DNA of 64,000 nt from Syntrophorhabdaceae bacterium (GCA_963665295.1 OY762209.1:1632001-1696000), one strand, 5' to 3'. Positions 4,813 to 61,965 are shown, numbered from the stretch's first letter. The notes: a model not told the origin generated them from the letters alone. A program made the numbers and translations.

Positions 4813-4872
4813 CGCGTGTCGAACCAATTGACATGAGCTATTTTGAAATGATACGTTGTACCAGGAAAATTT

Positions 4873-34366: not shown

Positions 34367-34368
34367 GG

Positions 34369-36272: not shown

Positions 36273-36281
36273 GGAGTATCC

Positions 36282-37148: not shown

Positions 37149-37157
37149 GGGGCGCCC

Positions 37158-38042: not shown

Positions 38043-38806
38043 CGGAGCCTCTCCTTTCTCTAAAAGGTGTCTCCAAATATTTCGGGGGCCTGAAGGCCGT
38101 GGACGGGGTCGATTTCGATGTCATCCCCGGCGAGATCATGGGCATCCTGGGACCGAACGGCGCGGGCAAGACGGTGCTCTTCAATCTCATCTCCGGCGTA
38201 TACGAGCCGACGGCCGGGGAGATACGGCTTAAGGGCGTGAAGATCGGAGGCCTTCCTGCCCACGTGGTGGCCCGGGCAGGCATAGGGAGAACATTCCAGG
38301 TGGTGAAGCCCTTCGCATCGCTCACCGTCCTCCAGAATGTGCTCGTGGCCGAAGGGATTACCCGGTACGACCACCTCGCAAAGGTCTGGGCGCCCTGGGG
38401 CTCGAAGCCGGAGATAAGAGCGGCCATGGAAATCCTTGAAAAGGTGGGCCTCGCGGAGTTGGCCCACAGAAAGGCGGGCCTTTTGCCCCTCGGGAACCTG
38501 AGACGTCTCGAAATCGCCCGGGCCCTGGTGGTGGGCCGCACGCTCGTCCTCCTGGACGAGTCCTTTTCGGGCCTCAGGCATGAAGAAATCGGCAAACTCG
38601 AAGCCCTGATCCGCCGGATAAGAGACGAGGGACGCACCGTCATCTTGATCGAACATAATATGCGTGTTACCATGGGCCTTTGCGACCGCATCGTGGTCCT
38701 CGACCATGGGAGGAAGATCGCCGAAGGCCCTCCCCGGACGATCCAGGAGGACGAGACGGTGATTGAAGCATATCTCGGCAGGAAGGGGACAAAGTATGCT
38801 CCTTGA
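38039..38806 (+). CDS. livG: HAAT ABC ATP-binding protein
   Basis: FGGLKAV, GPNGAGKT, GIGRTFQ, LLDE and VIEAYLG motifs. Confidence 0.92.
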   Translation: MTEPLLSLKGVSKYFGGLKAVDGVDFDVIPGEIMGILGPNGAGKTVLFNLISGVYEPTAGEIRLKGVKIGGLPAHVVARAGIGRTFQVVKPFASLTVLQNVLVAEGITRYDHLAKVWAPWGSKPEIRAAMEILEKVGLAELAHRKAGLLPLGNLRRLEIARALVVGRTLVLLDESFSGLRHEEIGKLEALIRRIRDEGRTVILIEHNMRVTMGLCDRIVVLDHGRKIAEGPPRTIQEDETVIEAYLGRKGTKYAP

Positions 38807-39506
38807 CGTACAAGACATCCACATTGCCTATGGCGACATCGAGGCCGTGTCCGGGGTGAGTTTCCATCTTGAAAAGGGAGAGCTCATCTCCGTTATCGGC
38901 GCGAACGGTGCGGGCAAGACCTCCATTCTGGGGAGTGTCATGGGCATTCTCCCTGTCAGGAAGGGATCGGTCTTCTTCAAGGGCCGGGATATTACGGGCC
39001 TGCCTTCCCACGAGCGGGCGAGGCTGGGCATACGGATGGTCCCTGAGCGTTCCCGCGTGTTCCCCCGCCTTACGGTGTACGAAAACCTTCTTACCGGCGT
39101 GTACGGGCTCCGGAAAAAGATGCCCGTGGCCGGACGCATACAATGGCTCTACGGGATTTTTCCTATTCTCGAGGAACGGCGGGACCAGCTTGCCCGGACC
39201 CTTTCGGGGGGCGAGCAGCAGCAGTTGTCCATAGCCCGTGCCCTCATATCCGACCCGGAGCTTCTTCTCGTGGACGAGGTATCCATGGGCTTAAGCCCCA
39301 TGCTCGTGGAGCAGGTCTTCGGGGTTCTCGAACAACTGAACCGCGAGCATGGACTCACCATCCTCCTCGTGGAGCAGAACGCCTTTGCGTCCCTCTCCAT
39401 TTCCGGGCGCGGGTACGTGCTGGAGACGGGGACGTGCGCCCTTTCGGGGAGTGCGGCGGAGCTTCTCGACAACCCTCAGGTGAAAGAGGTGTACCTCGGC
39501 AATTAA
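38796..39506 (+). CDS. livF: HAAT ABC ATP-binding protein
   Basis: GANGAGKT, LSGGEQQ and LLVEQN motifs. Confidence 0.92.
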   Translation: MLLDVQDIHIAYGDIEAVSGVSFHLEKGELISVIGANGAGKTSILGSVMGILPVRKGSVFFKGRDITGLPSHERARLGIRMVPERSRVFPRLTVYENLLTGVYGLRKKMPVAGRIQWLYGIFPILEERRDQLARTLSGGEQQQLSIARALISDPELLLVDEVSMGLSPMLVEQVFGVLEQLNREHGLTILLVEQNAFASLSISGRGYVLETGTCALSGSAAELLDNPQVKEVYLGN

Positions 39507-39560
39507 GGCGGGGCGGAAATAGATGGAAGTCAACACAAATACTTACTGGAGGTGCTGCAC

Positions 39561-40718
39561 ATGAAGGGTCTCAAGGTAATTTGTCTTGTCCTTGCGGGAT
39601 GCTTTCTCCTTGCGGGAGTTTCGGCGGCGGCGGATACGATCAAGATCGGTCTTCTGGTTCCCCTGACCGGCGCGGCCGCGGCGGACGGCCTCTCCGCCCA
39701 GAATTCGGTGAAGCTCGCCGTGGAGCGGGTCAACGCCGAAGGAGGGCTGATGGGAAAGAAGGTGGAGCTTATCTCCTACGATGACCGGGGCGACGCGAAA
39801 GACGCGGTGGCCCTCGCGAGAAAGCTCATCGAACAGGACAAGGTGGCGGCTGTGGTGGGCGGTTCCTACAGCCAGCCGAGCAGGGCCGTGGCGCCCATTT
39901 TCCAGGAAGAGAAGATACCCTTTGTCGCCGCCTATGCGGTCCATCCCGATATTACCAAGGCAGGTAACTTCTGTTTCCGGAACGGCTTTTTGGGCCAGGT
40001 GGAAGGCAAATCTGCGGGCTACGTGGCCGTGAAGATGCTGAAGGCGAAGAGGATCGCCCTCCTTACGAGCGACAACGACTTCGGGCGCACCCTTGCCGAG
40101 GGATTCAAGTATTACATGGATAAATATGCGAAGGGCGCGGCCACGGTGGTCTCACAGCAGGTCTATCCCATGGCCGAAAAGGATTTCAAGGCCTACCTCT
40201 CCAAGATCAAACAGGAAAACCCCGACCTCATTCTCGCAAGCGGCTATTACTTTCAGACCGGTCCCATCGTGAAGCAGGCGAGAGAAATGGGCATTACCGC
40301 CCATATCCTGGGCGAAGAAGGGGCGGATTCCCCGAAATTCGTGGAGATCGCGGGAAAGCCCGCGGCTGAAGGTTTCGTGATCGTCACGAACCTCAACAGG
40401 GACGACAAGAGGCCGGAGGTCAAGAAGTTCCTCACCACCTATGAAACGAGGTTCAAGATCGAGCCCGACATGGTAGGCGCTTCCGCCTACGACGGCTTCA
40501 TGATCATCTGCGACGCCATCAAGCGGGCAAAGAGCGTGAAAGGCCCCGACATAAGGGCTGCCATAGCGTCGATCAAGAACTTCAATGGCTTGACCGGTGA
40601 AATCAAAAGATTCACCGCCGAAGGCGAGGTAGTAAAGGATGTGCAGGTCCAGATCGTAAAGAAAGGCCGTTTCCGCAACCTGGGAGTAGTAACCGAGCCG
40701 GAACTGATTACGCCTTAA
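39561..40718 (+). CDS. HAAT ABC substrate-binding protein (LivK-like)
   Basis: Signal peptide, IKIGLLVPLTG and NAEGGLMGKKVELISYDD motifs. Confidence 0.9.
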   Translation: MKGLKVICLVLAGCFLLAGVSAAADTIKIGLLVPLTGAAAADGLSAQNSVKLAVERVNAEGGLMGKKVELISYDDRGDAKDAVALARKLIEQDKVAAVVGGSYSQPSRAVAPIFQEEKIPFVAAYAVHPDITKAGNFCFRNGFLGQVEGKSAGYVAVKMLKAKRIALLTSDNDFGRTLAEGFKYYMDKYAKGAATVVSQQVYPMAEKDFKAYLSKIKQENPDLILASGYYFQTGPIVKQAREMGITAHILGEEGADSPKFVEIAGKPAAEGFVIVTNLNRDDKRPEVKKFLTTYETRFKIEPDMVGASAYDGFMIICDAIKRAKSVKGPDIRAAIASIKNFNGLTGEIKRFTAEGEVVKDVQVQIVKKGRFRNLGVVTEPELITP

Positions 40719-40729
40719 GGGCAACTCTC

Positions 40730-40761
40730 TCTCGCCCTCTCCCACAAAGGAGAGGGCGAGA
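40730..40761. terminator. hairpin between convergent genes
   Basis: TCTCGCCCTCTCC-N6-GGAGAGGGCGAGA 13-bp stem. Confidence 0.55.
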
Positions 40762-40795
40762 ACACAGCAAGACAAGGAGACTCCGGGCACACCTC

Positions 40796-41797
40796 TTACG
40801 GTTCCCGGCTGAGGACGGCGGTGAGGCATCGGGCGCTGCTGCCGTATTCTATGGTCGTGTGCAGGGGGACCGTGATTGCTTCCATGCCGCGCTTTCGGTA
40901 TTCCCGTGCGATCCGCTCATATTGCGCTGCCACGACAATGGTGTCGGGATCGATGGAGAGGTTGTTGGCTCCTGCCCGTTCTTCCGGAGCGACCAAGATC
41001 TTATCCCAGCTTTTGAGCGGTCCGGGGAGGTCATCGACGAGGGCCGCAGGGCAGTAGGTGAGGAGTCCCGGCCGGTTGAGGCTCAAGACCCAGTCGAGGT
41101 GGAAGCGTTCCGGGGCGAGGCGGATAAGGTGCACCTTGTAATCGCGTCCCAGGAATTGCCGCAGCCAGTCGAGGCCGCGCTCGTTCGAGGCGTTTCCCGA
41201 CATGCCCACGTACACGTTGAACCCGTCCGTCATGATATCCCCGTTCTCGATATAGAGATCGTCGTCCCTGTAATGGGGTGAAGGGGGAGGCGTGGCGACA
41301 TAGCGGACATCTGCGCCCTTGATCAGCTTTTCGAGGACCGGGCGGACCACCCATACCTGTTTGCGTCGGAAGGGATACCTGAAGGAATTGAGGAGGATCA
41401 CGTTGTGGCCGATGACCCTGAAGAAATCGGCGCCCCCGAAGAGCATGTCCCCTCTCTGGATATGGGCGAGAAAATCCTTCTCCTCGGGATAGCGGAGTGG
41501 CTTTGTCCGGTGCACTATAACCCCGTGGTCCTGAAGCACCTTTACGTGCCCTTCGATCTGTTCCCTGAGAAGCGCGAATTCCCCGGGAAAAACATCAATA
41601 GTCTTTTTTCCCGCGCACTCCTTGAGGGCCCGCACGTCCGCTTCACGGAGCCACTTCATGGCCGGGATATAGTCCATTTCGACCGTGTCATCCACAATGC
41701 CGACCACCGCTTCCTTCAGACGGCCCCATTCATTATAGACGCCTATGGTTCTCTTCTCCTTGCTCCCGGTGGCGCGCCCGCCGGACGTCTTGTCCAT
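40796..41797 (-). CDS. amidinotransferase/arginine deiminase-superfamily enzyme
   Basis: YNEWGRLKEAVVG, IENGD, FHLD and C-terminal ARCLT (catalytic Asp/His/Cys); AGGAGG RBS. Confidence 0.82.
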   Translation of the reverse strand: MDKTSGGRATGSKEKRTIGVYNEWGRLKEAVVGIVDDTVEMDYIPAMKWLREADVRALKECAGKKTIDVFPGEFALLREQIEGHVKVLQDHGVIVHRTKPLRYPEEKDFLAHIQRGDMLFGGADFFRVIGHNVILLNSFRYPFRRKQVWVVRPVLEKLIKGADVRYVATPPPSPHYRDDDLYIENGDIMTDGFNVYVGMSGNASNERGLDWLRQFLGRDYKVHLIRLAPERFHLDWVLSLNRPGLLTYCPAALVDDLPGPLKSWDKILVAPEERAGANNLSIDPDTIVVAAQYERIAREYRKRGMEAITVPLHTTIEYGSSARCLTAVLSREP

Positions 41798-41897
41798 GGT
41801 ATTATTCCTCCTGTAGTCATCCGGGAAAGGTGCAGTCGGTCGTCGTGACTCATTCCCGGAGACTGATCTTTGATGTCGCATGGAGTGTGTACCCTCT

Positions 41898-43442
41898 TTA
41901 TCCGTCCGCATTCGTGTCCAAAGCGCGACGAATGGCCCGGGCTAATTCCTGCCTGACGAGGGGTTTCATGACAAATTGGCTGATGCCTGCAAGCTTTGCC
42001 GTCTCCCGGGAAACCGTTTCACTGTGGCCGGTGCAAAGGATAATGGGGATGTCGTTTCTTATCTTAAGGATCTCTTTGGAGAGTTGCAGACCGGTCATTC
42101 CCGACATGGTCTGGTCGGTAATAACAAGATCGAATCGGGAAGGACCGGCGGAAAAGATATTCACCGCTTCTTTACTGTCCGTCACGGCAGTCACTGTATA
42201 GCCGAGCCTCTCAAGCACCGCCTCGCCCCACTCGACAAGCATCTGTTCATCATCTACGAAGAGGATCCTCTCCCTGCCTCCGCACGTTTGAACCCCGGAT
42301 ACGCGTTCTTCTTCGATCCCGGTCTTTATTTTGGGGAGAAGGACCCGGAAAGTGGAGCCGACGCCGGGCTCGCTTTCCACGGTAATGGTACCCTGGAGGT
42401 CCTTCACAATCCCATAAACGACTGCGAGGCCCATTCCCGTACCCTTGCCGACTTCCCGCGTGGTAAAGAAAGGCTCGAAGACCCGTTTCATCACATGGGG
42501 GCTCATGCCGACACCGGTATCCTTCACTGTGAGGTGGAGATACTCTCCCGGCAGCACCTCAACCCCTACTATGGGCGAGTCGGGCATGAAGTCTATATCG
42601 GCGAGGCCTATATCCAGGATTCCTCCCTTATCTTGCATGGCAAGGGAGGCGTTCGCGGCGAGATTCATGAGTATCTGCTGTATTTCCACCGCAGAGGCAA
42701 AGACCATGCCGGAGCTCGCCGTATTCGTAAACCTGATCTCAACCGTGGCAGGGATGGAAGCCCTCAGAAGCTGGATGGTCTCGTTCATGAGAGGGGTGAG
42801 GGAGAGAGGGGCCCTCTTGTAATTAGTCTTCCTGCTGAACGTGAGAATCTGTTTCACAAGTTCTCTTGCCCTCATTGCCGACTTGAGGACTTTCTGGAGG
42901 CTAATCACTATCTCCGGGCGGTCCGAAGCGTCTTCCACAGCCATCTCGGTGAAGCCGAGGATAGCAGCGAGGATATTGTTGAAGTCATGGGCGATGCCTC
43001 CGGCAAGGGTACCCATGGCCTCCATCTTCTGGGCCTGGCGGAGCTTTTCCTCGGTAATCCTTTGGGTGATTGCGTACCGGATGGAGCGTTCGAGAAGGGG
43101 ACCGTTAATCTGTCCCTTCACGAGGTAGTCCGACGCCCCCAGGCGCATGGCTTCCATGTCCGTTTCGTAATCTCCCTGTCCGGTTATGAAGATGACGGGA
43201 GATGCAAGACCCCTCTTCCTTATTTCTCCAAGGAGTTCCAGCCCGGTTCGCTCGCCCAGGTAATAGTCGAGGAGGTAGACGTCGTAACGGGTCTTTTCCA
43301 TGGCCTCCAGGGCCTTCTCGTAGCTCGAAGCCCACTCCAGCTCATATCTCGTGGAAGTCATCTTTGAGAGCATGCCTCTGACGAGTACATAATCATCCTC
43401 ATCGTCTTCGATGAGCAGGACCCATATCCTGGTCTTGTCCAT
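41898..43442 (-). CDS. hybrid sensor kinase (REC-HisKA-HATPase-REC)
   Basis: LLIEDDEDD, GGIAHDFNN, GKGTGMGL and ILFVDDE motifs. Confidence 0.92.
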   Translation of the reverse strand: MDKTRIWVLLIEDDEDDYVLVRGMLSKMTSTRYELEWASSYEKALEAMEKTRYDVYLLDYYLGERTGLELLGEIRKRGLASPVIFITGQGDYETDMEAMRLGASDYLVKGQINGPLLERSIRYAITQRITEEKLRQAQKMEAMGTLAGGIAHDFNNILAAILGFTEMAVEDASDRPEIVISLQKVLKSAMRARELVKQILTFSRKTNYKRAPLSLTPLMNETIQLLRASIPATVEIRFTNTASSGMVFASAVEIQQILMNLAANASLAMQDKGGILDIGLADIDFMPDSPIVGVEVLPGEYLHLTVKDTGVGMSPHVMKRVFEPFFTTREVGKGTGMGLAVVYGIVKDLQGTITVESEPGVGSTFRVLLPKIKTGIEEERVSGVQTCGGRERILFVDDEQMLVEWGEAVLERLGYTVTAVTDSKEAVNIFSAGPSRFDLVITDQTMSGMTGLQLSKEILKIRNDIPIILCTGHSETVSRETAKLAGISQFVMKPLVRQELARAIRRALDTNADG

Positions 43443-43443
43443 G

Positions 43444-43926
43444 TCATACCCCTTTTGGAAAATCCACATTTCTTGCGTCAAGTGGAAGTTCCACGATTTC
43501 AAACCAGTATTTGCCCAGGGATTTCACCACTTCCACGAGGCCATCGAAGGTCACGGGTTTTGTGATATATGAATTGGCGCCCAGGTTATAACTTTTGAGC
43601 ACGTCTTCCTCGTTTTTGGACGTGGTTAACACTACAACGGGGATTTCACGGAGGGAAGGATCTTCCTTGATTTCTTTGAGTGCTTCGCGCCCGTCCTTCC
43701 TTGGCATGTTGAGGTCAAGAAGGATGAGCCCCGGACGCGGCGCCTGGTCGGGATCATCATATCTTCCCCGCCGATAAAGATAGTCCATGAGGTCCTCACC
43801 ATCGTTGACAAACCTGAGGTCGTTGCGCAGCCGCCCGGCCTTGAATGCCTTGGATACGAGCAGACAGTCGTCCGGGTCGTCGTCGGCCATGAGGATGGTG
43901 ATCGTTCTGCAAGCACTATCGTTCAT
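43444..43926 (-). CDS. single-domain response regulator (Rcp1-like)
   Basis: ADDDPDD, LILLDLNMP, VVVLTTS and GANSYITKP motifs. Confidence 0.92.
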   Translation of the reverse strand: MNDSACRTITILMADDDPDDCLLVSKAFKAGRLRNDLRFVNDGEDLMDYLYRRGRYDDPDQAPRPGLILLDLNMPRKDGREALKEIKEDPSLREIPVVVLTTSKNEEDVLKSYNLGANSYITKPVTFDGLVEVVKSLGKYWFEIVELPLDARNVDFPKGV

Positions 43927-45812
43927 TCGGTTCCTCCTCTTGGTTGTTTCACGGGGAGGCTCACGATAAATGTCGTGCCCTTTCCCGGAGTGCTCTTCGC
44001 GGTGATGTCTCCGCCATGGCGGTCCACGATCTTCCGGCATATGGCAAGACCGATGCCCGTTCCCTCATGGACTCCGCGCCCGTGGAGCCGCTGGAAGAGC
44101 GTAAAGATGCGGTCGAGATATTTTTCGTCAAAGCCTATGCCGTTATCTTCCACGAATATTTTGAACTCACGGGCCTTTGACTGTCCCTCTATTTCGTCGG
44201 GGCCTGCCGGCAGCCCATAGACTTTGACCACCGGCCTTTCCTCTCCATGAAACTTGAGGGCATTCCCGATGAGGTTCTGAAAGAGCTGGACCATCTGGAC
44301 CGGATCGGCCTCAATCATAGGGAGGCCATCGATTTCGACCCGTCCGCCCGTGTCTCTTATGCTTGCCTCCAGGTTGCCTGTCGCTTCGTTGGCCGCGGCC
44401 GTAAGGTCGATATGGGAGAAGGGCCTTGCTTTCGTCGTCACCCGGGAGTAGTTGAGGAGGGCCTCGATGAGGGCCTGCATCCGGGTAGCCGCACCCTGCA
44501 TCCGGTCCAGGTAATCGGCCCCTTCGGCATCGAGGGCTGCGGCGCAGTCGGTTCTCAACTGGTCTCCAAAGGCCCGTATCTTTCTGAGAGGCTCCTGGAG
44601 GTCGTGGGATGCGACAAAAGCAAAATCCTGAAGCTCCCGGTTGCTCGCTTCAAGCTGGGCCGCATGCCTTCTTGTCTCGTCTTCAGCACGTTTTCGCTCG
44701 GTAATGTCTATGTTGATCTCCAGGACGTCCATGGGCCTGCCCGCCTCGCCCAGCCTGACCGCATGCCTGCTGAGAACGGTAAGGTTCGACCCATCCTTCC
44801 TCGTATGGACGAGTTCCCCGTCCCACCGGCCTTCGCGGGTCAGCGCCGCCATGTACTCGTCAATTGATAAGGGCCACCGTGTTTTAAGAAGGATGTGAAT
44901 CACGTTGCCCACGGCTTCCGCCTTGGTCCAGCCATAGGTTTCTTCCGCTCCGCGGCTCCAGAAGACAATCCTGCCATCGAGGTCTTTCACGATGATGGCC
45001 TCGTGGGATAGTTCAATCAAATCGGCCTGGCGTCGTACCGCTTCCTCGGACCGGGCGCGCGCAACCGCCTCCTGCCGCAATGTTGCGTAGGACGTCTTCA
45101 GCTCCTCTGCCATATGGTTGAGCGCCCGGGACAGCCGGCCCAGTTCATCGTCGGTCACGACAGGGACTACATAGTCAAGGTTACCCCCTCCGATGGCCCG
45201 GGTCCCTTCTTCCAGTTTCCCGAGAGCGACGGAAGTGCGCCTCATTATGGAAAGGGAGACAAGAAGGACGAGGACGGAAAAGAAACCTGCAAAACCGAGA
45301 GTGAAGAGGTTGGCTCTCTTTTGAGCGGTTGAGACCTCTTTCTCGGCCTCCTTTTCGAGCCGCTCGGCGTCGGACGCCATCTCGCGCACCCGCTCCAATA
45401 CCTGGGCGGTGAGGCGGTTTTCGAGTTCCGCCTTGTCTATGGTCTTTGTCGGCTCTTTCATCCATGAGTCCGAAAGTCGGGCAAGAAGCAGAGTGATACC
45501 CTGCTGATCCTGACGTAACCTGCTCAGGATGACTTCTTCTTCCGGTTTTTCCGATTTCGTCTGGGAAATAAGTCTGGTCAGGGACGTTTCAATCTGATTG
45601 AGTTGCATTTCCGGCCGTTCTTCGTGACGGAGCAGGAGATAATGGACGACAAGGCTGAGGTCCGATACGTTCCGTCGTATCCGGGCGGCCGCTTCACCTT
45701 TTAGCCGGACATGATTTACCTCGCGGCCCGTGTACGCATACATGGACGCAATGATAAGGAAGAGGCCGAGGGGGAGGACGGCACTGATCGTAAGCCTTGT
45801 CCTTATCTTCAA
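43923..45812 (-). CDS. membrane sensor histidine kinase (HAMP, PAS)
   Basis: Two TM segments, HAMP DELGRL, ASHDLQEPLR and GTGIGLAIC motifs. Confidence 0.92.
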   Translation of the reverse strand: MKIRTRLTISAVLPLGLFLIIASMYAYTGREVNHVRLKGEAAARIRRNVSDLSLVVHYLLLRHEERPEMQLNQIETSLTRLISQTKSEKPEEEVILSRLRQDQQGITLLLARLSDSWMKEPTKTIDKAELENRLTAQVLERVREMASDAERLEKEAEKEVSTAQKRANLFTLGFAGFFSVLVLLVSLSIMRRTSVALGKLEEGTRAIGGGNLDYVVPVVTDDELGRLSRALNHMAEELKTSYATLRQEAVARARSEEAVRRQADLIELSHEAIIVKDLDGRIVFWSRGAEETYGWTKAEAVGNVIHILLKTRWPLSIDEYMAALTREGRWDGELVHTRKDGSNLTVLSRHAVRLGEAGRPMDVLEINIDITERKRAEDETRRHAAQLEASNRELQDFAFVASHDLQEPLRKIRAFGDQLRTDCAAALDAEGADYLDRMQGAATRMQALIEALLNYSRVTTKARPFSHIDLTAAANEATGNLEASIRDTGGRVEIDGLPMIEADPVQMVQLFQNLIGNALKFHGEERPVVKVYGLPAGPDEIEGQSKAREFKIFVEDNGIGFDEKYLDRIFTLFQRLHGRGVHEGTGIGLAICRKIVDRHGGDITAKSTPGKGTTFIVSLPVKQPRGGTE

Positions 45813-46894
45813 AGCCTTGCACCGATTATGGTCAGAGTGTCGGGGCGGACCGATCTGAGTCCGTCCACATAAATGCTTTCCATAAAGTTGGGTACCATGG
45901 TATCCGGCACGGGTTTGTTCCCTTTGGCCCAGTTGGCCTGGTTTTCGAGGTTGATGAGAAGCGACTGATCAAGGGCCACCAGGAAATAGTAGCTCTTCCA
46001 TACGGCCTGAAGATCGGTCTTATCCATCCCCAGACGTGTTGCAGCAATCAGGATTGCCTTTTCAGGTTCCCTGCCGATGAAGGCTTCCGCTTTTACGAGG
46101 GCCCGCAGCATCTTTCTCACAGTCTCCGGCCTGTTTGCGACAAAATGAGGCGAGCCGACGAGGTTCCACGTCATCCGATAAAGCCCGGTGGCGTAGTAAA
46201 CCTCCACGACGGCACCCATGGCTTTCCTGATGTCCGCTATGTGCGGCTCCCAGGTTGAAACCGCATCGACACGGCCGCTCTGCAGCGCCTCTTTCATGCG
46301 CTCAGGATTCAGAGGAACAATCTTCGTGCTGCTCTTCGGTACGCCGTGAAAGAGGAGAAATATGGCGAGAAGGTAATCCCCGGTTGTGTGGGGCGTAACG
46401 CCTATCCTCTTTCCCTCGAGGTCCGGGGGGCTCGATATTCCTTTATCCTTTCTCGCCGCTATTGCGGTGATGGCCTCGGAAGTGGCAACGGTTGCCACGA
46501 TAGAGAGCTTGCGGCCCGTCACTATGGCCCGCATGATCGGGGTCTCGGCGCAGGTTGCCATATCGTGTTCTCCGTTCAACATGGAGTCGAGGGCTTCTTT
46601 GCCGGAGTTAAAATCGTGAAAGGTTACATCCAGGCCCTCGTCCTTGAAATAGCCTCGCTCCAGGGCGACCCAGAGAGGGGCCGATACGGGGATGTTGTTT
46701 ACGGCGATGGTCAGTTTTTCGAGTGGCGCTGTTCTTCGCGCAAAGAGTCCCCCCTCGCCGCGCCAGGAATAGACGATGATCGATAGTCCGAGAGGGATTG
46801 AGATGACTATGGCCCACAGCAGCCGTTTCCTTCTCTGTCTGCCCCGGTCCGGGGAGCCTGTAGTTTCGCCTTGAGGTTCGGTCAATTTACCCAT
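45809..46894 (-). CDS. SsuA/TauA/NMT1-type substrate-binding protein
   Basis: ERGYFKDEGLDV, DLEGKRIG and GRVDAVSTWEP motifs. Confidence 0.85.
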   Translation of the reverse strand: MGKLTEPQGETTGSPDRGRQRRKRLLWAIVISIPLGLSIIVYSWRGEGGLFARRTAPLEKLTIAVNNIPVSAPLWVALERGYFKDEGLDVTFHDFNSGKEALDSMLNGEHDMATCAETPIMRAIVTGRKLSIVATVATSEAITAIAARKDKGISSPPDLEGKRIGVTPHTTGDYLLAIFLLFHGVPKSSTKIVPLNPERMKEALQSGRVDAVSTWEPHIADIRKAMGAVVEVYYATGLYRMTWNLVGSPHFVANRPETVRKMLRALVKAEAFIGREPEKAILIAATRLGMDKTDLQAVWKSYYFLVALDQSLLINLENQANWAKGNKPVPDTMVPNFMESIYVDGLRSVRPDTLTIIGARL

Positions 46895-47891
46895 GGATGA
46901 TTCCCACCGCCTGAGGCTTCACCTTCCCCAGTAGATGCCAATCGATGTATTCCAGATAATTCGGCATGCCTTTTCCTTCCGATCCCTTTCGCTTCATAAG
47001 CCACCTGGCCTCTTCCTCCATCAGGTGGAACAGACTCTGATCGAGCCGCACCTCATATATCTGCTGCGACCATATGAGGGAGGCATATTGATCGTCGAGG
47101 TTCAGCCTTCTTTTTACGATGGCCTGTGCCTCCGCACGATTGTCTGCAACAAACTTTTGAGCCTCCAGCAGCGAGGAGAGGAGTCGTTCCAGGGTAATTC
47201 CGGAAGATTGGAGAAACTCTTTACCGGTGAGAAGGAGGAAGAAATAGTTCTGTCGCTCCTGAAACGGCCATGAGATTGCATTGGATTCCAGGCGCTGACG
47301 GGCGTAAAACGTGTAGGGGCTGAAGGCGATAATAGCATCGACCGAACCGGCAGCCAGGGCTTCGACGGCCTCCACGGGCGTGAAATCCGCTATGGTGACG
47401 GATGAGACCGGAATACCGTAAAATGTGAGAAAAGAATCAAGGAAGAACTCAAGTGCCGTTCCGCGCACGGTGCCCATTCTCTTGCCTTTAAGGTCGGCGA
47501 CCGACTCGATCCCGCGGTCTTTCCGGGCAATGATCTCGCAGTCCTCAACCCTTGCGATCGATGCAATGGCTCTTAAGTCCGCACCGGCCATGTTTTTGTT
47601 TACCAGCAAGAACTCCGCCGCAGTCGCGACTTCCACTTCACCTGCGACGAGTCCCGCCGCCGCCAGCGCTCCTGCCTGATAGTCCTTGATAGACACGTCC
47701 AGCCCGTGCTTTGCAAAGAACCCTTTTTCCTGGGCTACGAAGGCGAGAAGGCTCATGGGCGTTTTTGCGACGCCAAATCTAAGCTTCAAAGGTGCGAGAC
47801 GGCCATGATGAAAGCGCGTTATCGCAACGGCGAGGACGACCAGACAGACAAGACCGGCCACCATAATAAGGATAAGCTGTTTTCGCTTCAT
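46887..47891 (-). CDS. SsuA/TauA/NMT1-type substrate-binding protein
   Basis: EKGFFAKHGLDV, DLKGKRMG and GSVDA motifs. Confidence 0.85.
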   Translation of the reverse strand: MKRKQLILIMVAGLVCLVVLAVAITRFHHGRLAPLKLRFGVAKTPMSLLAFVAQEKGFFAKHGLDVSIKDYQAGALAAAGLVAGEVEVATAAEFLLVNKNMAGADLRAIASIARVEDCEIIARKDRGIESVADLKGKRMGTVRGTALEFFLDSFLTFYGIPVSSVTIADFTPVEAVEALAAGSVDAIIAFSPYTFYARQRLESNAISWPFQERQNYFFLLLTGKEFLQSSGITLERLLSSLLEAQKFVADNRAEAQAIVKRRLNLDDQYASLIWSQQIYEVRLDQSLFHLMEEEARWLMKRKGSEGKGMPNYLEYIDWHLLGKVKPQAVGIIHG

Positions 47892-48188
47892 CAATTTCTC
47901 CAGAATTATTATATCCAATCAATAAGACAATGTAAATCGTGGCACACCGGCGGGCCGGGCCTCAACGGACAATGATCGACCATGATTGATTCCTAATCCG
48001 TATCAGGCCGACTCCCCGTTCGCCTATACATTGTCCTTTAAATCAAATCCCCTTTCAAGGGGAGAACAGGAACCGGGTAAGGGCGGAAACGGCCCATTTC
48101 CCAAAGAATAATACAGGCGATTGCTTTCATAAACGATTCAGGGGGAATTGGTTTGTCGCTATTTGTTGTTTTTACCGGGACACAGTCC

Positions 48189-48464
48189 CTAGCTTCGGTA
48201 ATCTTCGAGGCGTCGGTCCATTTCCCGGCGGTAGAGGGCTTCGAATTCGGGCGATTCATATTTGAGGCCCCGATTTGCCCGGAGGATTTCGGAAGCAACC
48301 TTATCCCTGTAATTGGCTTGGCCGGCCCGGTCGCCGGGATACATTTCCTCGGCGACATCATGAAGCCTTCTCCTGCTCTTAACCGCCCGCGCGATGGGAA
48401 TGGCCGCATACACGAGGAGGGTAAGGGCGGCGACTGTCGATAAGCTCCATATGAATATTTCCAT
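48189..48464 (-). CDS. small hypothetical membrane-anchored protein
   Basis: GAGGAG RBS; N-terminal hydrophobic helix. Confidence 0.55.
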   Translation of the reverse strand: MEIFIWSLSTVAALTLLVYAAIPIARAVKSRRRLHDVAEEMYPGDRAGQANYRDKVASEILRANRGLKYESPEFEALYRREMDRRLEDYRS

Positions 48465-48743
48465 TTTGTCTCCTCAAAGACCAGCCGGGCAGTCTTCCGG
48501 GCGCCATCAACCTTGAATCGGAATACCTGAACCGTCTTTCGCCGCGCGGACTCTTCCTGCTTGATCCTTGTCATATATTACATCATATCGTCGTGTTATT
48601 AAAGACAAATCGGGCGAAGGGGCCGGAGACGGCGTTGCGGGAAGGTTTCCCCGCCGGCCCCTTCGGGAGTAGGAGGAGTTGTTTTTACTTGTAAATTAGT
48701 GCATATTTCAGTAAATAGAGAGAAAGAAACCAGGAGGGACCAG

Positions 48744-48845
48744 ATGGCGAAAACTCAGGAGATCAAGAAAGAGGCAAAGAAGAAACCACTGAAGACCCTG
48801 AAAGAAAAACGCCTTGAGAAGAAGGCAAAAAAAGAGGATAAATAG
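48744..48845 (+). CDS. 33-aa lysine-rich small protein
   Basis: GGAGG RBS; MAKTQEIKKEAKKKPLKTLKEKRLEKKAKKEDK; below the ORF-track size cut-off. Confidence 0.7.
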   Translation: MAKTQEIKKEAKKKPLKTLKEKRLEKKAKKEDK

Positions 48846-49164
48846 ACCTTTCGGGAATGACTCGATCACCTTCCGGACGGTTTTCACCGGCCGGGGAGAT
48901 CATTACAGAAAGTGCCTTTTGGGAACGTAGCCTTCGCTTCCGCCGTGTCTCCAAAGGGGATTCCTCCTTTTGTTCGCACTTATGCCGGTTGTCCTCCCAC
49001 CCTTTTCTATTTCAACGTATTTCAACCGAATAATCCGAGGACGCTCCGGTTGCCCCGTGAGGGCCCCACGTAGCGCCCGGGCCTATTTGCACGGCCTCTC
49101 TCCCGGGGTCGTACCCGGAAGAACAGGGCGAGTCCTTTTACGCAGCGGTTCATCCGGGCATTGA

Positions 49165-50172
49165 TCACAGATCCTTCCTGCGCTCCTTTGCCCCCTTCAT
49201 CCTCTCTATGGCTTTCTCCACGTATTCGCAGGGGAAGCCTTTGTCCCGCCGGAGGAAATCAAGGAGGCCGGCTTCGTCCATCGCGCCGTATTCAATGCGG
49301 TACCTGTCCGTGACAGGAGGGTGGAGGAAGAATTCGCGTACTTCCCTGTAATTTTCACTCACCCGGGGCTTTATGTGCGGGGGGAGCCGCTCGATATTTC
49401 CGTAACTCTTTATGAGGCTCACCGCGGATTTCGGGCCCATGCCCCTGATGCCGTGGTTAAAATCGTTGCCTATGAGAATGGCCGCGTCAATAAGCTGGGC
49501 AGGGGTGATGCGGTGAGTCGCGAGCATCGCGGAGAGGTCTATGACGAGGGCGGTAGGAGGACTTATTGGCCCATCATGGGACGAGACGTCCCTGGGTGAA
49601 CGGTAAACCAGCCTCACCATCCTCGGGCTGCCGAAAAGAAGAGTATCATAGTCTTTGCTCGCCACTGCCCAGGCATCTCCATTCTTTGCCATGAAGGCCG
49701 CCTGGGCCTCGCCTTCGCTCGGGGCCCGCACCCGGGGAATGCCGAGAAGATCCAGAAGACGTTCGGCGTCAGCCACCATGGACTGGGTGACACGGGCCGC
49801 CCTCAAGGCCTTGGAGAAGGCCACCTCCATGAGCCCCGCTTTCCTTGCCTCCTCATATTCCATGGCAAACCGTTCCTTGACGGCCCTGCGCCTTTCCAGT
49901 TCTTCCCTTTTGAGGGCAGGAGGTTCGCCGTCGAAAACGAAGACGAGCCTTATCCCGAAATCGGTGATAAGACGGGTGGACGCATCCACCAAGCCGCGCA
50001 GATGGGAAGTGACATTGCCTTCCGGGTCCGTCAAAAGGGATCCGTCGGGCTTGCGAAACATGGCCATCAGGTCATAGAGCATACCGTTGCCGTCAACGGC
50101 GAGGGTCTTTCCCTCCAGGTCGGCGAGGCGCACCGGCACCTTATTGACCAGTGGCGTGAGGAATAATCCCAT
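49165..50172 (-). CDS. fen: archaeal-type flap endonuclease 1 (FEN1/XPG family)
   Basis: MG start, LAVDG, PDGSLLTDPEGNVTSHL, FVFDGEPP, APSEGEAQAA, SKDYD.LLFG and GNDFN.GIRGMGPKSA motifs; AAGGAG RBS. Confidence 0.88.
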   Translation of the reverse strand: MGLFLTPLVNKVPVRLADLEGKTLAVDGNGMLYDLMAMFRKPDGSLLTDPEGNVTSHLRGLVDASTRLITDFGIRLVFVFDGEPPALKREELERRRAVKERFAMEYEEARKAGLMEVAFSKALRAARVTQSMVADAERLLDLLGIPRVRAPSEGEAQAAFMAKNGDAWAVASKDYDTLLFGSPRMVRLVYRSPRDVSSHDGPISPPTALVIDLSAMLATHRITPAQLIDAAILIGNDFNHGIRGMGPKSAVSLIKSYGNIERLPPHIKPRVSENYREVREFFLHPPVTDRYRIEYGAMDEAGLLDFLRRDKGFPCEYVEKAIERMKGAKERRKDL

Positions 50173-50316
50173 ATCCTTATCTCCTTCTCCTCCAAGCATA
50201 GTGACGGTGCGGCCTGTTGTCGAGAGAAGGTTCCCAGGCACGCCTGCCGCGTCTTTTTAAGGATAGGCGTAAGAACGAGTGCAGTCAAGGAAGTTTGCGG
50301 TTTTCCGGTCCGGCAC

Positions 50317-50357
50317 GAAAAAGGGCGGCCCTCGAACCCGGGAGGCCGCCCTTTTTC
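50317..50357 (-). terminator. intrinsic (bidirectional-type) terminator
   Basis: GAAAAAGGGCGGCC...GGCCGCCCTTTTTC. Confidence 0.8.
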
Positions 50358-50390
50358 TTCAATCCCGATCAGGGATTGATGGTTGGGTGA

Positions 50391-50849
50391 TTATTGGTAT
50401 ACGCCGCTAAGGACATAGAGGTCCGTCCCTTCAACCCGCTGAACCCAGGATTTCTTTGTCTGCACCTTGTTCGTCGCGGGGTTTGTCCAGTTGTAGCTCG
50501 CCCATCCGCTCCCTTTGGTCTTGGCCAGTTCGATCATCTCCCTTATGAAGAACTTGCCGTTTGCGTCTCTCACGTCATAGAAGCTCTTTCCCGCGAGTTT
50601 CGGCTGCATCGGGTTCGCGAGGTTTATCCCGTTGAAGTCCTGTATGACGACATAAAGATCGCCTTTTACAAACTGACCCTTGGGGTTGCCTATTTCCGCA
50701 ATTCCCTTTTCTTTCCCATGGGACTTCACGTATGCCGCGGCCTTTTCCGAAAGGACCTTGGCGTCATCGAGGGGCGCCGCCTGACCGATAAGAACCGTGC
50801 CGAAAACCAGCATTGCCGCGAATACAATACTCCTTACTACTGCTTTCAT
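50391..50849 (-). CDS. stand-alone exported single Cache domain protein
   Basis: Signal peptide; DLYV, DANGKFFIREM and GSGWASYNWTNP motifs. Confidence 0.85.
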   Translation of the reverse strand: MKAVVRSIVFAAMLVFGTVLIGQAAPLDDAKVLSEKAAAYVKSHGKEKGIAEIGNPKGQFVKGDLYVVIQDFNGINLANPMQPKLAGKSFYDVRDANGKFFIREMIELAKTKGSGWASYNWTNPATNKVQTKKSWVQRVEGTDLYVLSGVYQ

Positions 50850-50902
50850 GAGAACCCTCCTTCTGTGGTAACGAATGTGTAACCTTTAACAGGTCCGGAA
50901 TT

Positions 50903-50930
50903 TTATCGGCGAAAACCATCCGTACTTAAG
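50903..50930 (-). promoter_or_regulatory. sigma-28 (FliA)-like promoter
   Basis: CTTAAG-N14-GCCGATAA on the minus strand, about 55 nt upstream of the Cache gene. Confidence 0.7.
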
Positions 50931-51108
50931 TCGCATCGCGATGGGATCGAGGTGAAGATACGGCTTGCATATTATGTTCCGTCGGATTAGAATCACTCAC
51001 ATATCGTTTTGAAAGGCGTCATTTTGCCGGGAGGATGGGCCGAGTGACGGACTCAGGGGAGGCAGCACGCGATAGATTGCCCGGTTCAAGCGGGAATGGA
51101 GGCGCCAC

Positions 51109-53799
51109 ATGACACACCGGTTTGTCCGCATTCTAATTCTGGTTCTTCTCATCATTCTGCTTTATACCGCATCCAAGACGGTCGGGGTCTACGTTGACTG
51201 GCTTTTCTTCAATGAGGTAGGTCTGAAGGAAGTCTTCGCCAGGGCGATTTCCGCCGAAATCGTTACGGGCCTCGGTTTCGGTCTTCTCTTTTTCGTCTTT
51301 GTCGGTGTGAATGTGCTCATTGCGTGCACGGGCAAGGTACCGCAGATCGACATCGTGCTCATGCAGCGCATGAGAATCGCCATTGACCCGAGCCGGTTCA
51401 TGCGGGTGCTCAGGCCCGTGGGCCTCGGGATAGCCCTCATCGGCGGAGTAATGGCCGCTCTGTGGAGCAGCGACCTCTGGGCCCAGGTCCTTTTGTTTCT
51501 CAACCACGTAGAGTCCGGCACGGTTGATCCCATATTCGGTCATGACATGGGATTCTACCTTTTCAGGCTTCCTTTCTGGGAATTCCTGAGCGGCTATGCG
51601 GGCTTCCTCCTTTTCTTCACCCTCCTCGTGGTGACGGCCCTCTACACGGCAAGGGGCGGGGTCATCCTTTTCGGCAGGACCATCTCTTTCGTAAGGCAGG
51701 CCAGGGTGCACCTCGCCTTGCTGGCGCTGCTCTTCTTCGTGAAGATGGCGTCCGGGTTCTATCTTGAAAGGTTCGAATCCCTTTACTCGACCCACAGCGT
51801 AATTACCGGGGCCGGCTATGCCGACGTGTACGGGAAGCTGGTGGTGTTGGGGGTTCTCATACCCCTCACAATCCTGGCGGGTATTCTCTTCGCCTATGGC
51901 CTTCTGAAGGATAAATGGAAGGCCGCCGTTTATCCGTGCGGCGCTCTCATCGTCCTCTATATCCTCGGGGCAGGCATCTACCCCGCCTTTCTCCAGAATT
52001 TCAAAGTCGCGCCCAGCGAACTGGCCCTCGAGGAGCCTTTCATCAAGCACCACATCGAGCTTACCCAGTATGGCTACAATCTGAAGAAGGTGCAGGTGGT
52101 GCCCTTCGATGTCTCCTTCAACCTTACGGCAAAGGATTTGAGAAATAACGACGCCACCCTCAAGAATATCAGATTGTGGGATGAAACGCCCCTCCTCAAG
52201 ACTTACAGCCAGCTCCAGCAGATCCGGACGTACTACCGGTTTCACGGCATCGATAACGACCGCTACACCATCGACGGGGAATACAGGCAGGTCCTGCTCT
52301 CGGCGAGGGAACTCTCTTACGACGATCTTCCGAGCAAGTCGTGGATCAATGAGAAGCTCGTATTCACCCACGGCAACGGCATTGTCATGGGATATGCGAG
52401 CAGGATTTCAAAGGAAGGCCTGCCCGAGTTCATCGTCAAGGACATCCCGCCCGTTTCCACCACGAACGTAAAGATCAAGACGCCGGAGATCTATTATGGG
52501 GAATTGACCAATGACTATGTAGTGGTAAATACGAGGGTTCCCGAATTCAGCTACCCCACTGCCGAGGGAAATATCTACACCTCTTACAGCGGAAAGGGGG
52601 GAGTGCGCCTCGATTCCCTCTTCAAGAAGGGGCTCTTCGCTGCCTATTTCCGGACGGCCAAGATACCTCTCACAAATGAAATCAGGAACGAAAGCAGGAT
52701 ACTCTACAACAGGAATGTGGTGGAAAGGGTCAAGAGGATCGCTCCCTTCCTGCTCTATGACTCCGATCCCTACATTGTCGCCTCAGATGACGGCAAACTC
52801 TACTGGGTTATCGACGCCTATACCGTATCCAACCGCCTTCCTTATTCCAAACCCCTGAAGAACAGGGTAAATTACATGAGGAATGCCGTGAAGGTAACGG
52901 TGGACGCATACGACGGAAAGGTCAATTTCTACCTCAGCGATCCCGAGGACACCATTGCGCGGGTATACAACACAATCTTCCCGACCCTGTTCAAGCCCCT
53001 CAAGGAAATGCCTGAAGGACTCAGGGCGCATGTGCGGTATCCGCGGGACCTGTTCAAGGTCCAAACATCCCTTTACGCAGTCTACCATATGAACGACCCG
53101 AAGGTGTTTTACAACAAGGAAGACCTCTGGGAAATACCGGTTCGTGGGGACAAGGCCATGGAGCCCTACTACCTGATCATGAAGCTGCCCGAACAGAAGC
53201 GGGAGGAGTACGTGCTCCTCATGCCCTATACACCGGCCAAAAGAGACAACCTCGCGGCCTGGTTCGCCGTGAGGTGCGATGAGCCCAACTACGGAGGACT
53301 TATCGTATATACGTTTCCGAGGGACAGGCTCGTGTTCGGTCCCCGTCAGGTCGACGCGAGGATCGACCAGGATTCCTATATCTCCCAGCAACTCACGCTC
53401 TGGGGTCAGCGAGGTTCCCAGGTAATCAGGGGAAGCCTCCAGATCATCCCTATCGAGAAGTCCCTTCTCTACGTCCAACCCCTGTACCTCGCGGCGGAGG
53501 ACAAGGGAGGATTGCCGGAACTCCGAAGGGTGGTCGCGGCTTACGAGAACAACGTGGTCATGGAGGAGAACCTTGAACAATGCCTTGCCTCCCTCTTCGG
53601 CGGCCGCAGGGCGGTGACAGAGAAGCCCGATGGGCGCGCGCCCGCGACTATTGTGAAGGCTTCTGTCCAGGATCTCGCAAAAGAGGCCGGCCGGATCTTT
53701 GAGAAGGCCAAGGCCATGCAGAGACAGGGAGATTGGGCGGGTTACGGGGAACAACTCAAGAAACTGGAGCAAACGTTGAAGCAGATGTCAGGGCAGTAA
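51109..53799 (+). CDS. UPF0182 family membrane protein
   Basis: DPIFGHDMGFYLF.LP, NIRLWD, YYGE, NYMRN.VK.TVDAYDG and LYVQPLY motifs. Confidence 0.92.
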   Translation: MTHRFVRILILVLLIILLYTASKTVGVYVDWLFFNEVGLKEVFARAISAEIVTGLGFGLLFFVFVGVNVLIACTGKVPQIDIVLMQRMRIAIDPSRFMRVLRPVGLGIALIGGVMAALWSSDLWAQVLLFLNHVESGTVDPIFGHDMGFYLFRLPFWEFLSGYAGFLLFFTLLVVTALYTARGGVILFGRTISFVRQARVHLALLALLFFVKMASGFYLERFESLYSTHSVITGAGYADVYGKLVVLGVLIPLTILAGILFAYGLLKDKWKAAVYPCGALIVLYILGAGIYPAFLQNFKVAPSELALEEPFIKHHIELTQYGYNLKKVQVVPFDVSFNLTAKDLRNNDATLKNIRLWDETPLLKTYSQLQQIRTYYRFHGIDNDRYTIDGEYRQVLLSARELSYDDLPSKSWINEKLVFTHGNGIVMGYASRISKEGLPEFIVKDIPPVSTTNVKIKTPEIYYGELTNDYVVVNTRVPEFSYPTAEGNIYTSYSGKGGVRLDSLFKKGLFAAYFRTAKIPLTNEIRNESRILYNRNVVERVKRIAPFLLYDSDPYIVASDDGKLYWVIDAYTVSNRLPYSKPLKNRVNYMRNAVKVTVDAYDGKVNFYLSDPEDTIARVYNTIFPTLFKPLKEMPEGLRAHVRYPRDLFKVQTSLYAVYHMNDPKVFYNKEDLWEIPVRGDKAMEPYYLIMKLPEQKREEYVLLMPYTPAKRDNLAAWFAVRCDEPNYGGLIVYTFPRDRLVFGPRQVDARIDQDSYISQQLTLWGQRGSQVIRGSLQIIPIEKSLLYVQPLYLAAEDKGGLPELRRVVAAYENNVVMEENLEQCLASLFGGRRAVTEKPDGRAPATIVKASVQDLAKEAGRIFEKAKAMQRQGDWAGYGEQLKKLEQTLKQMSGQ

Positions 53800-60809: not shown

Positions 60810-61292
60810 GTGAAAAGACAAGGTCATATTTTGGCACTCTGCCTCGTTTCATTCGTATTGTGTCTTTCCCCCCGGGTTACCCACGGGTTCAAACAGTCGG
60901 ATGTGGATAAGATTTCAAACACCAAGGAATGCCAGTGGTGCGATCTGCGCGGCGCGAACCTCTCGGGCTCGGACCTTTCGGACGCATCCCTTTCAGGAGC
61001 CAACCTTTCTGAAGCGAGACTCAAGGGCGCGAACCTGACAGGCGCAAATCTTTCAACAGCGTATCTGCGAAATGCCGACCTTTCGGGCGCGAACCTCACC
61101 GGCGCCTTTCTGGATAAAGCCAATTTAAACGGCGCGAACCTCACCGGCGCGAACCTCACCGGCGCGAAATTGTCCAAGGCCACGTGGACGGACGGGGAAA
61201 AGTGCGATGAGGGATCGACGGGAGAATGCAAGCAGAGTCGTGTCATCCGGCCCAAAGACGAGACCCCGCCTCTTTTCCCTGCCGATTTCTAA
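60810..61292 (+). CDS. exported pentapeptide-repeat protein
   Basis: Signal peptide, CQWCDL, tandem ANLxG repeats; GTG start with GGAGG RBS. Confidence 0.88.
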
Positions 61293-61557
61293 GACCCTTC
61301 GTACGTTATGGACGGACAGGTCCCGTCGCAGCAGGCGGCCTTGGGGATCATCATTCGGGCCGTCCGGCTTTGTTTTACAAAGAGTGGTTCGACAGTCTTG
61401 TTCGCATGGCACGCCCATTTCGACTCTTTTGTCGCCCCTTCCCGGCAAGACCGATAAATTGACCGTCATATCAATATCCTGGCCGCCATCACCTTTGGTA
61501 CGTTTCTTGCTTTTATTTAGTTGCGAGGATATGAACCCCGCAAGGCAAGGAGGCGGC

Positions 61558-61965
61558 ATGAAAAGGGTAATGATGGTCCTTATGATTGTGATTATGGGCA
61601 TATGTTTGTTAAGTCCATCACTATATGCAAGGGGGGGCGGCGGCCACGGAGGCGGCGGAGGCGGCCACAGTGGAGGACATGGCGGTGGAAGCGGCTACAG
61701 CGGCGGTCATGGCGGAGGTGGCGGTCATGGCGGCCAGGGTTATCACGGAGGCGGTGGAGGTTACGGGAACCACGGTTATTACGGCGGAAACAGAGGTTAT
61801 TACGGAGGACGCTCAGGCTACTACGGCGGAGGTTACTACCGTCCCTATTACGGGGGAAGGTACTACGGCTATGGTTACACAGGTATCTGGGTCCCCGGAT
61901 ACTGGTCGGAAATCTGCGACGCCTGGGGATGCAGGGTGGTCTGGGTTCCCGGTTATTACCGGTAA
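61558..61965 (+). CDS. Gly/His/Tyr-rich exported protein
   Basis: AGGAGG RBS, signal peptide, GGH and GYYG repeats, two WVPGY motifs. Confidence 0.75.
   Translation: MKRVMMVLMIVIMGICLLSPSLYARGGGGHGGGGGGHSGGHGGGSGYSGGHGGGGGHGGQGYHGGGGGYGNHGYYGGNRGYYGGRSGYYGGGYYRPYYGGRYYGYGYTGIWVPGYWSEICDAWGCRVVWVPGYYR

Follow-up and report, generated by a model that had tools for sequence, protein, structure and literature searches.

The locus described here raises the question of how a bacterium came to possess a flap endonuclease of the archaeal kind, and of what such an enzyme could do in a bacterial cell. FEN1 is a textbook marker of DNA replication as carried out by archaea and eukaryotes, and PCNA is regarded as the organiser of its action. 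The stretch of DNA that was analysed (64,000 nucleotides from Syntrophorhabdaceae bacterium, GCA_963665295.1 OY762209.1:1632001-1696000; referred to below as the window) contains a gene of this type, for which an earlier note, made from the sequence alone, had claimed archaeal FEN1 motifs, a C-terminus without a PCNA-interacting protein (PIP) box and an origin by transfer between the domains of life. The gene in question is the following:

49165 to 50172, minus strand: gene for a FEN1-type flap endonuclease lacking a PIP box, 335 codons followed by TGA (translation of the open reading frame, ORF)

The answer favoured here, to which we give a probability of about 0.62, is that this gene encodes a functional, clamp-independent accessory 5'-flap endonuclease, which belongs to a bacterial branch of FEN1 proteins lacking the PIP-bearing tail (tail-less, in what follows) and was acquired horizontally. 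If this reading is correct, then the enzyme would act without a clamp in a cell that has the beta clamp and no PCNA, it would cut 5' flaps in a structure-specific manner in intermediates of DNA repair or recombination, and it would work beside the 5' nuclease of Pol I and not instead of it. The flap cutting, the freedom from a clamp and the accessory role in repair are all predictions from the sequence.

The window protein is an archaeal/eukaryotic-type (XPG/Rad2) FEN1 with an intact catalytic module. In Pfam searches it is matched by XPG_I (PF00867; E value 3.7e-21, 75.8 bits against a cut-off of 24.9) and by XPG_N (PF00752; 2.4e-14, 54.1 bits, cut-off 22), and the NCBIfam model TIGR03674 (fen_arch) aligns with it over profile positions 1-330 of 338 (338.4 bits, E 4.2e-101). 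The archaeal motifs listed in the earlier note are all found in the translation of 335 amino acids (viz. KPDGSLLTDPEGNVTSHLRG, VFDGEPPALK, APSEGEAQAA, SKDYDTLLFG and GNDFNHGIRGMGPKSA), and the acidic metal ligands, which were likewise said to be retained, are seven in number (D27, D81, E153, E155, D174, D176 and D237). In an alignment of 207 rows, the conservation of these seven residues is 96-100% among the 137 archaeal-type rows and 97-100% among the other 69 tail-less rows; for human FEN1, the passage of PMC5499597 concerned with these ligands gives D34, D86, E158, E160, D179, D181 and D233. The protein has also kept G2, Y33, R40, K88 and R95, the last two of which lie in the helical arch (helices 86-111 and 115-125 in the predicted structure) and are invariant, and its helix-3-turn-helix (H3TH) region (residues 222-272, which include GMGPK) matches PF01367. 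The AlphaFold2 model, built from 56 relatives, has a predicted local distance difference test score (pLDDT) of 93 and a predicted template modelling score (pTM) of 0.91, with low confidence only at the loop 191-200 (the beta-pin, pLDDT 63) and in the last five residues. Searched with Foldseek, this model is closest to 3ory (3.9e-31), and it superposes on the Archaeoglobus fulgidus FEN-1 bound to DNA (1rxv_A) with template modelling (TM) scores of 0.86/0.94 and on the human FEN1-DNA complex 3q8k with 0.83. By sequence, too, the solved relatives ranking highest are archaeal FEN1s (3ory_A at 8.9e-77, then 4wa8, 1mc8, 1rxv and 1b43, the E values running from 1e-77 to 1e-55), and the human FEN1 structure ranks after them at about 1e-42. 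The ESM Atlas contained generic FEN1 clusters only, mostly archaeal.

Comparison with known enzymes places the protein more precisely. With the archaeal FEN1s (TIGR03674; 3ORY from Desulfurococcus amylolyticus, 1RXV/1RXW from A. fulgidus and 1B43 from Pyrococcus furiosus) it shares XPG_N/XPG_I, the seven acids, the Lys and Arg of the arch, the GxGPK of the H3TH, the length and the fold, at 40-41% identity in structural alignment. However, it differs from them in that it is without a PIP box, its host is without PCNA, its score falls below the equivalog cut-off and it carries 13 unusual substitutions. Human and other eukaryotic FEN1 (3Q8K; the FEN1-PCNA complexes 1UL1 and 8YJH) is alike in fold and catalytic residues, whereas the identity is only 28-31% and the window protein has neither the PIP box nor the long basic C-terminal extension. 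The bacterial 5' nucleases (the Pol I N-domain and the ExoIX/Xni-type enzymes, PF02739) belong like it to the FEN-like PIN superfamily, probably act on the same kind of substrate and coexist with it in the cell. However, the window protein did not cluster with these bacterial 5'-3' exonucleases, as the earlier note had considered it might, and falls with the archaeal enzymes; no Pfam match to 5_3_exonuc_N (PF02739) was found in it, and the sole bacterial 5'-3' exonuclease signal is a sub-threshold match in the H3TH region (31.2 bits against a Pfam cut-off of 40).

The C-terminus bears out the earlier description. The protein ends ...KGAKERRKDL, and no PIP box was found in this C-terminal part, either as the core h-x-x-[WFY] or in the form Qxx[LIM]xx[FWY][FWY]. 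Counted from R324, which is near-invariant in the alignment, its tail is 12 amino acids long, as compared to a median of 20 in the 137 PIP-type rows and of 8 in the tail-less clade, and 132 of the 137 PIP-type rows carry the h-x-x-[WFY] core, versus one (P0117) of the 70 tail-less rows. The best 120 of 2178 database matches showed two classes of C-termini, which either carry PIP tails of the type Kx-Q-x-x-L-x-x-W-F or stop a few residues past the last helix.

The cell in which this tail-less protein is found lacks a partner for the missing motif. The host genome (G000) is a single contig of 5,508,164 bp, 98% complete, and the window holds bacterial genes (for FtsK, many GGDEF/EAL and PAS proteins, a methyl-accepting chemotaxis protein and histidine kinases, as well as hut genes), which agrees with the claim that this FEN1 resides in a bacterial chromosome. 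The genome has dnaN and a polA frame of 857 amino acids that is matched over positions 2-288 of the 5' nuclease profile, this being the only 5_3_exonuc_N match in G000, and PCNA_N has no match in it; the same search finds PCNA in 4 archaeal control genomes. As the cell is without PCNA, the clamp-coupled maturation of Okazaki fragments cannot apply to the window FEN1. The Pol I 5' nuclease is kept in all 3 bacterial genomes tested (G000, G428 and G429), none of which has PCNA, and due to this the FEN1 is best regarded as an accessory and not as a replacement. The two Casimicrobiaceae genomes that carry a tail-less FEN1 (see below), which have no PCNA, have kept the Pol I 5' nuclease along with a solo bacterial FEN. 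A Lig1-type ligase, as a partner for FEN1, is absent from G000; its only ATP-dependent ligase is of the LigD type, has a Prim-Pol neighbour and lies 3.8 Mb from the FEN1 gene. A second, divergent dnaN-like match is located outside the window at G000:C1:2508757-2509797 (117.8 bits, below the cut-off of 137.65), in a frame of 571 amino acids; it could represent a fusion or a paralogue of the beta clamp.

The FEN1 of this lineage was acquired horizontally and lies in a genome-specific segment, an islet that the relatives are lacking. The gene was found in none of 40 close relatives and in none of 95 other genomes of the order, and a sample of 400 further genomes from the phylum showed a FEN1 only in G309. 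The latter gene (L010, on G309:C428) is PIP-bearing, stands alone on a contig of 1,610 b in a metagenome-assembled genome (MAG) with 7% contamination, and its amino-acid make-up is unlike that of the alignment; it is probably an archaeal carry-over and not a second bacterial case. For the Casimicrobiaceae, the gene was found in none of 300 other genomes of their order. Because FEN1 is absent from the relatives, it is not part of the core replication machinery of the lineage.

The phylogenetic trees indicate where the gene came from. In a tree of 127 rows, the proteins without a tail group together as a clade of 58 with an approximate likelihood-ratio support (SH-aLRT) of 86, and after addition of the best 80 of 515 metagenome relatives, which gives the set of 207 rows, they form a clade of 70 with an SH-like support of 93. 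In an IQ-TREE analysis of 92 rows, picked to represent every sub-branch and leaving out 115 rows, the tail-less clade has 45 members (ultrafast bootstrap, UFboot, 94; SH-aLRT 79). The domain to which the carriers belong was judged from source names and from the Pfam matches of 110 ORFs flanking the gene at 20 of the 80 metagenome loci, the neighbour families at these loci being taken by us to mark Bacteria or Archaea. The 10 rows for which such evidence is bacterial and the 10 for which it is archaeal are set apart on the tree by one change, and this is so in 92% of 200 bootstrap trees. The neighbours of the tail-less loci are PSD/PSCyt/DUF1552 proteins (L036, L040 and L045), an outer-membrane beta-barrel (L078) and dapB-dapA-dapD (L050 and L060), and those of the PIP-bearing loci are the PolD small subunit (L030), EF-2, ATP-dependent ligase and diphthamide synthase (L042) and CDC48 (L062, L065 and L087). 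The flanks of L039, L071, L068, L058, L049, L079, L085 and L024 are non-diagnostic, and at L026 only an M20 peptidase was seen. At L042:7790-9397, a locus with archaeal neighbours and a PIP-bearing protein, the FEN1 gene is directly followed by that of the ATP-dependent DNA ligase.

By source names, the tail-less side comprises Candidatus Brocadia and Candidatus Loosdrechtia (Planctomycetota) and two Casimicrobiaceae MAGs (Betaproteobacteria), and the other side Thermoprotei, Bathyarchaeota, Aigarchaeota, Nezhaarchaeota and Methanoperedens. All tail-less members whose origin is established are bacterial (Brocadiaceae, Casimicrobiaceae and contigs with bacterial neighbours), and the sister group of their clade is the FEN1 of archaea of the TACK type (by source names Bathyarchaeota, Aigarchaeota, Thermoprotei and Nezhaarchaeota) and not that of methanogens. 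The named bacterial representatives (Candidatus Brocadia MFN3532984.1, Candidatus Loosdrechtia aerotolerans MCF6159656.1 and the two Casimicrobiaceae MAGs) share with the window protein the clade, the truncated C-terminus and the occurrence as a solitary gene in unrelated contexts. However, their identity to it is 49-56%, and the window protein (row P0001) forms with P0002-P0004, at 59-62% identity and a support of 100/100, a separate and faster-evolving sub-branch. In a search of representative sequences, 7257 matches were obtained at an E value of 1e-3, 2221 at 1e-10 and 304 at 1e-30, and at the 50% clustering used there this sub-branch was not further resolved. Because the gene groups with tail-less FEN1s of bacteria from several phyla, the loss of the tail is probably older than the acquisition of FEN1 by this lineage, and its immediate donor is more likely to have been another bacterium. 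The ultimate origin in a transfer between domains, which the earlier note had proposed, is thus supported, whereas its further proposal, viz. that archaea of the same habitat were possibly the source and that the PCNA interface was lost afterwards, is not supported in that form, as the gene groups with the bacterial tail-less clade. The picture suggested by these sequences is that of a rare and patchy bacterial branch of tail-less FEN1, sister to the TACK-type archaeal enzymes.

Several observations, which weigh against the reading favoured here, need to be considered together. First, the protein scores 13.5 bits under the TIGR03674 equivalog cut-off of 351.95; since this cut-off is missed and both the PIP box and the PCNA partner are wanting, the protein is filed as a variant of the family and not as an equivalog. 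Second, the sub-branch P0001-P0004 is borne on a long stem (0.37). Third, its nesting within the bacterial clade is not significant, as a tree keeping it outside the other 42 tail-less rows is retained by the approximately unbiased (AU) test (p 0.295, log-likelihood difference 9.14). Fourth, the window protein departs at 13 positions from residues for which the bacterial and the archaeal groups each show a conservation of at least 90% (Q34D, F35L, L36M, R64A, L128V, G193P, L197S, P198S, P208A, E209L, T236N, L251V and R317Y), and these departures and the long stem could mean a relaxed constraint or a changed function. Lastly, what suggests clamp independence is only the missing motif.

If this lineage had instead received the gene separately and directly from an archaeal member of its own anaerobic community, and the gene had lost its PIP tail later by itself, then the long stem and the outcome of the AU test would find a ready account, and the identity of the window FEN1 to its best named archaeal match (Thermoprotei, 52%) is indeed close to that with Brocadia (56%). 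However, the maximum-likelihood (ML) trees place the window FEN1 inside the tail-less clade with the supports of 86, 93 and 94/79 given above, its tail stops within 12 residues of R324 in the manner of that clade and not of the PIP-type proteins, all four members of the sub-branch are already tail-less, the methanogen-related FEN1 is distant (Methanoperedens, 41%), and the codon usage is fully host-like, with a codon index (of the codon adaptation index type) of 0.752 against 0.725 +/- 0.047 and a GC content at third codon positions (GC3) of 0.705 against 0.676 +/- 0.071 for 1100 long host ORFs. A separate transfer therefore appears unlikely, and a common origin with the bacterial branch is favoured, rather than proven, by the ML trees and the common truncation.

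A different possibility is a rewiring of the enzyme to the beta sliding clamp of bacteria, with a part in the maturation of the lagging strand. Its basis is that 17 of the 70 tail-less rows, from both main sub-branches, have L-F or L-W among their final three residues (...RTLF, ...KKLLF, ...PTTLF, ...PSLF; the rows include P0012, P0013, P0017, P0073, P0093, P0094, P0096, P0111, L035, L039, L071 and L078), endings which we take to resemble the C-terminal end of beta-clamp-binding motifs (QL[SD]LF). A passage of PMC12926913 describes beta-clamp motifs in horizontally acquired, archaeal-related PolB groups of bacteria. However, the ...KGAKERRKDL tail of the window FEN1 has no recognisable beta-clamp motif, the L-F/L-W ending is lacking in this protein and in its three closest relatives, the Pol I 5' nuclease is kept and the gene is absent from all relatives of the host, so that for the window protein rewiring of this kind is quite improbable.

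The same low standing is accorded to the view that the gene is a functionless passenger drifting in a variable islet. Its patchy distribution, the fact that every relative dispenses with it, the 13 departures and the divergent beta-pin loop 191-200 would all be in keeping with decay. However, the frame is open over its full length, the catalytic residues are all kept, the fold is predicted with confidence, and expression signals of its own are predicted for the gene. At 8 of the 13 positions all four members of the sub-branch depart, and P0002-P0004 have stayed full-length at an identity of 59-62%, which speaks for long maintenance under selection and against decay; we therefore consider a mere passenger to be improbable as well. 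The signals referred to are:

50181 to 50186, minus strand: Shine-Dalgarno-like AAGGAG, 8 nt 5' of the ATG at 50172 (read from the sequence)

50260 to 50288, minus strand: sigma-70-like promoter match TTGACT-17-TATCCT, 9 of 12 positions (a consensus match only)

50318 to 50351, minus strand: GC-rich hairpin (GGGCGGCC...GGCCGCCC) followed by TTTTT, directly 3' of the upstream gene for a secreted single-Cache-domain (sCache) protein (read from the sequence)

The coordinates 49165-50172 are taken to be right, and a longer frame that opens with a GTG at 50241 was rejected, because all relatives begin with MG(V/L)xLTP, in which G2 is invariant, and AAGGAG precedes the ATG at 50172 by 8 nt. Due to the hairpin and T run that separate it from the sCache gene, the FEN1 gene would be a transcription unit of its own; with these, the promoter-like match and the AAGGAG it looks like a monocistronic bacterial unit, presumably expressed from its own promoter. 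The terminator scan missed this hairpin, whose loop is 12 nt. In two public runs of undefined library type (X4 and X5), short contigs covering 49163-50569 and 49137-50259 with 0 differences extend little beyond the FEN1 gene, and one of them has at 50259 a loose end of 30 nt, whose sequence does not occur in G000. Among the public runs listed for 47800-51300, none was an RNA run. The word depth of the short X4 and X5 contigs is above that of neighbouring contigs, though contig depth cannot rank genes, and they could be derived from transcripts or from a second genomic context.

Among the substitutions, A64 sits, in the alignment to a eukaryote-like FEN1, at the Arg of the GxFYRT motif, which is presumably human R70, and Y317 corresponds to the Arg in the EER motif, presumably human R320 of the 3'-flap pocket. 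According to a passage of PMC3035468, the change R70A abolishes exonuclease and/or gap-endonuclease activity and affects flap cleavage little. It may be speculated that the alterations at A64, Y317 and the beta-pin loop have narrowed the substrate range of the window enzyme, with flap cutting kept and the exonuclease and gap activities weakened.

The remaining alternatives concern the setting of the gene, which is summarized by the following features:

40718 to 50964, no strand assigned: segment of 10.25 kb absent at the collinear locus of the same-genus genome G001 (comparison of orthologues and of nucleotides)

50391 to 50849, minus strand: the sCache protein upstream of FEN1; paralogues elsewhere in the genome, no evident link with FEN1

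47919 to 49164, no strand assigned: gene-poor stretch downstream of FEN1 with small ORFs only; no repeat of it elsewhere in the genome

48189 to 48464, minus strand: ORF of 91 amino acids with an N-terminal membrane anchor; no Pfam, PADLOC or PHROGs match

48699 to 48845, plus strand: Lys-rich ORF of 48 amino acids in the gene-poor gap

The G001 orthologues of window positions 30366-40715 are collinear, and they come within about 740 bp of the UPF0182 gene, whose start in the window is at 51109; nucleotide homology to G001 stops at 40717 and resumes at 50965. Within this islet are found an ORF of 371 amino acids (with only a weak dimethylargininase-family match), a hybrid kinase and a second histidine kinase, two SsuA-like binding proteins, the gene-poor gap, FEN1 and the sCache protein, and the only parts of it with matches elsewhere in G000 are the paralogous kinase, binding-protein and Cache genes. 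No integrase, tRNA, flanking repeat or mobility gene was seen at 40718-50964. At gathering score the window contains no Rfam family, and a scan of 47800-50500 at an E value of 0.1 gave none either. A tRNA-Gly(ACC) of 91 nt reported by ARAGORN at 61925-62015 overlaps the end of the ORF 61207-61965 and is doubtful, as the Rfam gathering scan of the window gave no tRNA. Near the window start, about 40 kb from FEN1, are an IS256-family transposase (3526-4827, minus strand, 293 bits) and an FtsK/SpoIIIE-type translocase of 677 amino acids (6338-8371, plus strand).

The location in a strain-specific islet could suggest that the nuclease belongs to a prophage or to a system of defence against phages. 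However, neither PADLOC nor PHROGs matched FEN1 or its small neighbours (the scan being of ORFs other than that of 48 amino acids), a search of 50,697 phage records gave no match, a relative is not encoded by any of the 210 pattern matches in IMG/VR, and the neighbours of the bacterial homologues (dap genes, PSD-family proteins and an outer-membrane barrel) are mutually unrelated, making this origin very improbable. Among plasmids, the sole match is a haloarchaeal megaplasmid at 30% identity. Lastly, the FEN1 gene is truly part of the bacterial chromosome, and an assembly chimera or archaeal contamination, of which the probable contaminant in G309, on a 1.6-kb contig within the same phylum, serves as a reminder, is very unlikely, to the point of being negligible, as the genome is one 5.5-Mb contig, public-run contigs of 53,179 nt (run X3, spanning 40000-52000, which may be the source of the assembly) and of 41,909 nt (run X1, from a different study, spanning 42981-52000) cross the gene, both its flanks and both junctions with 0 differences, its GC, GC3 and codon index are host-like, and the flanking genes are bacterial with paralogues in the same genome.

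The reading of the window FEN1 as a horizontally acquired accessory flap endonuclease can also be extended into a fuller history, which is put forward as tentative and rather doubtful. If a single old transfer of a TACK-archaeal FEN1 founded the bacterial branch, which later moved between distant phyla, then parts of it, once the PCNA tail was lost, may have re-evolved a short ...LF end docking on the beta clamp, one clamp handle being exchanged for another by convergence, while the sub-branch of the window protein may have reshaped the surface with which it binds DNA (at the positions of human R70 and R320 and in the beta-pin), to become a clamp-free repair nuclease acting on flaps only.

Tail-less proteins in bacterial MAGs are already labelled 'flap endonuclease-1' in the databases, and Table 1 of a 2017 census of the PIN superfamily lists 2 bacterial sequences among 6119 of XPG_I (PMC5499597). 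A search of the full-text literature, which covered neither subscription journals nor the supplements of that census, found no paper describing a bacterial FEN1 branch. The window FEN1 is real, well integrated and evolutionarily interesting, a variant of a well-known enzyme whose function is here predicted from its sequence. The present work shows that intact tail-less FEN1s form a coherent branch in PCNA-free bacteria beside Pol I, and it thus provides a clean example of an informational gene that has crossed between domains and then spread among bacteria. It raises the idea that some tail-less FEN1s have re-acquired a clamp handle of the bacterial type. For biochemists, the branch offers mesophilic and presumably naturally clamp-independent FEN1 variants to set against the archaeal enzymes, and it represents a natural experiment on what FEN1 is capable of without a clamp.

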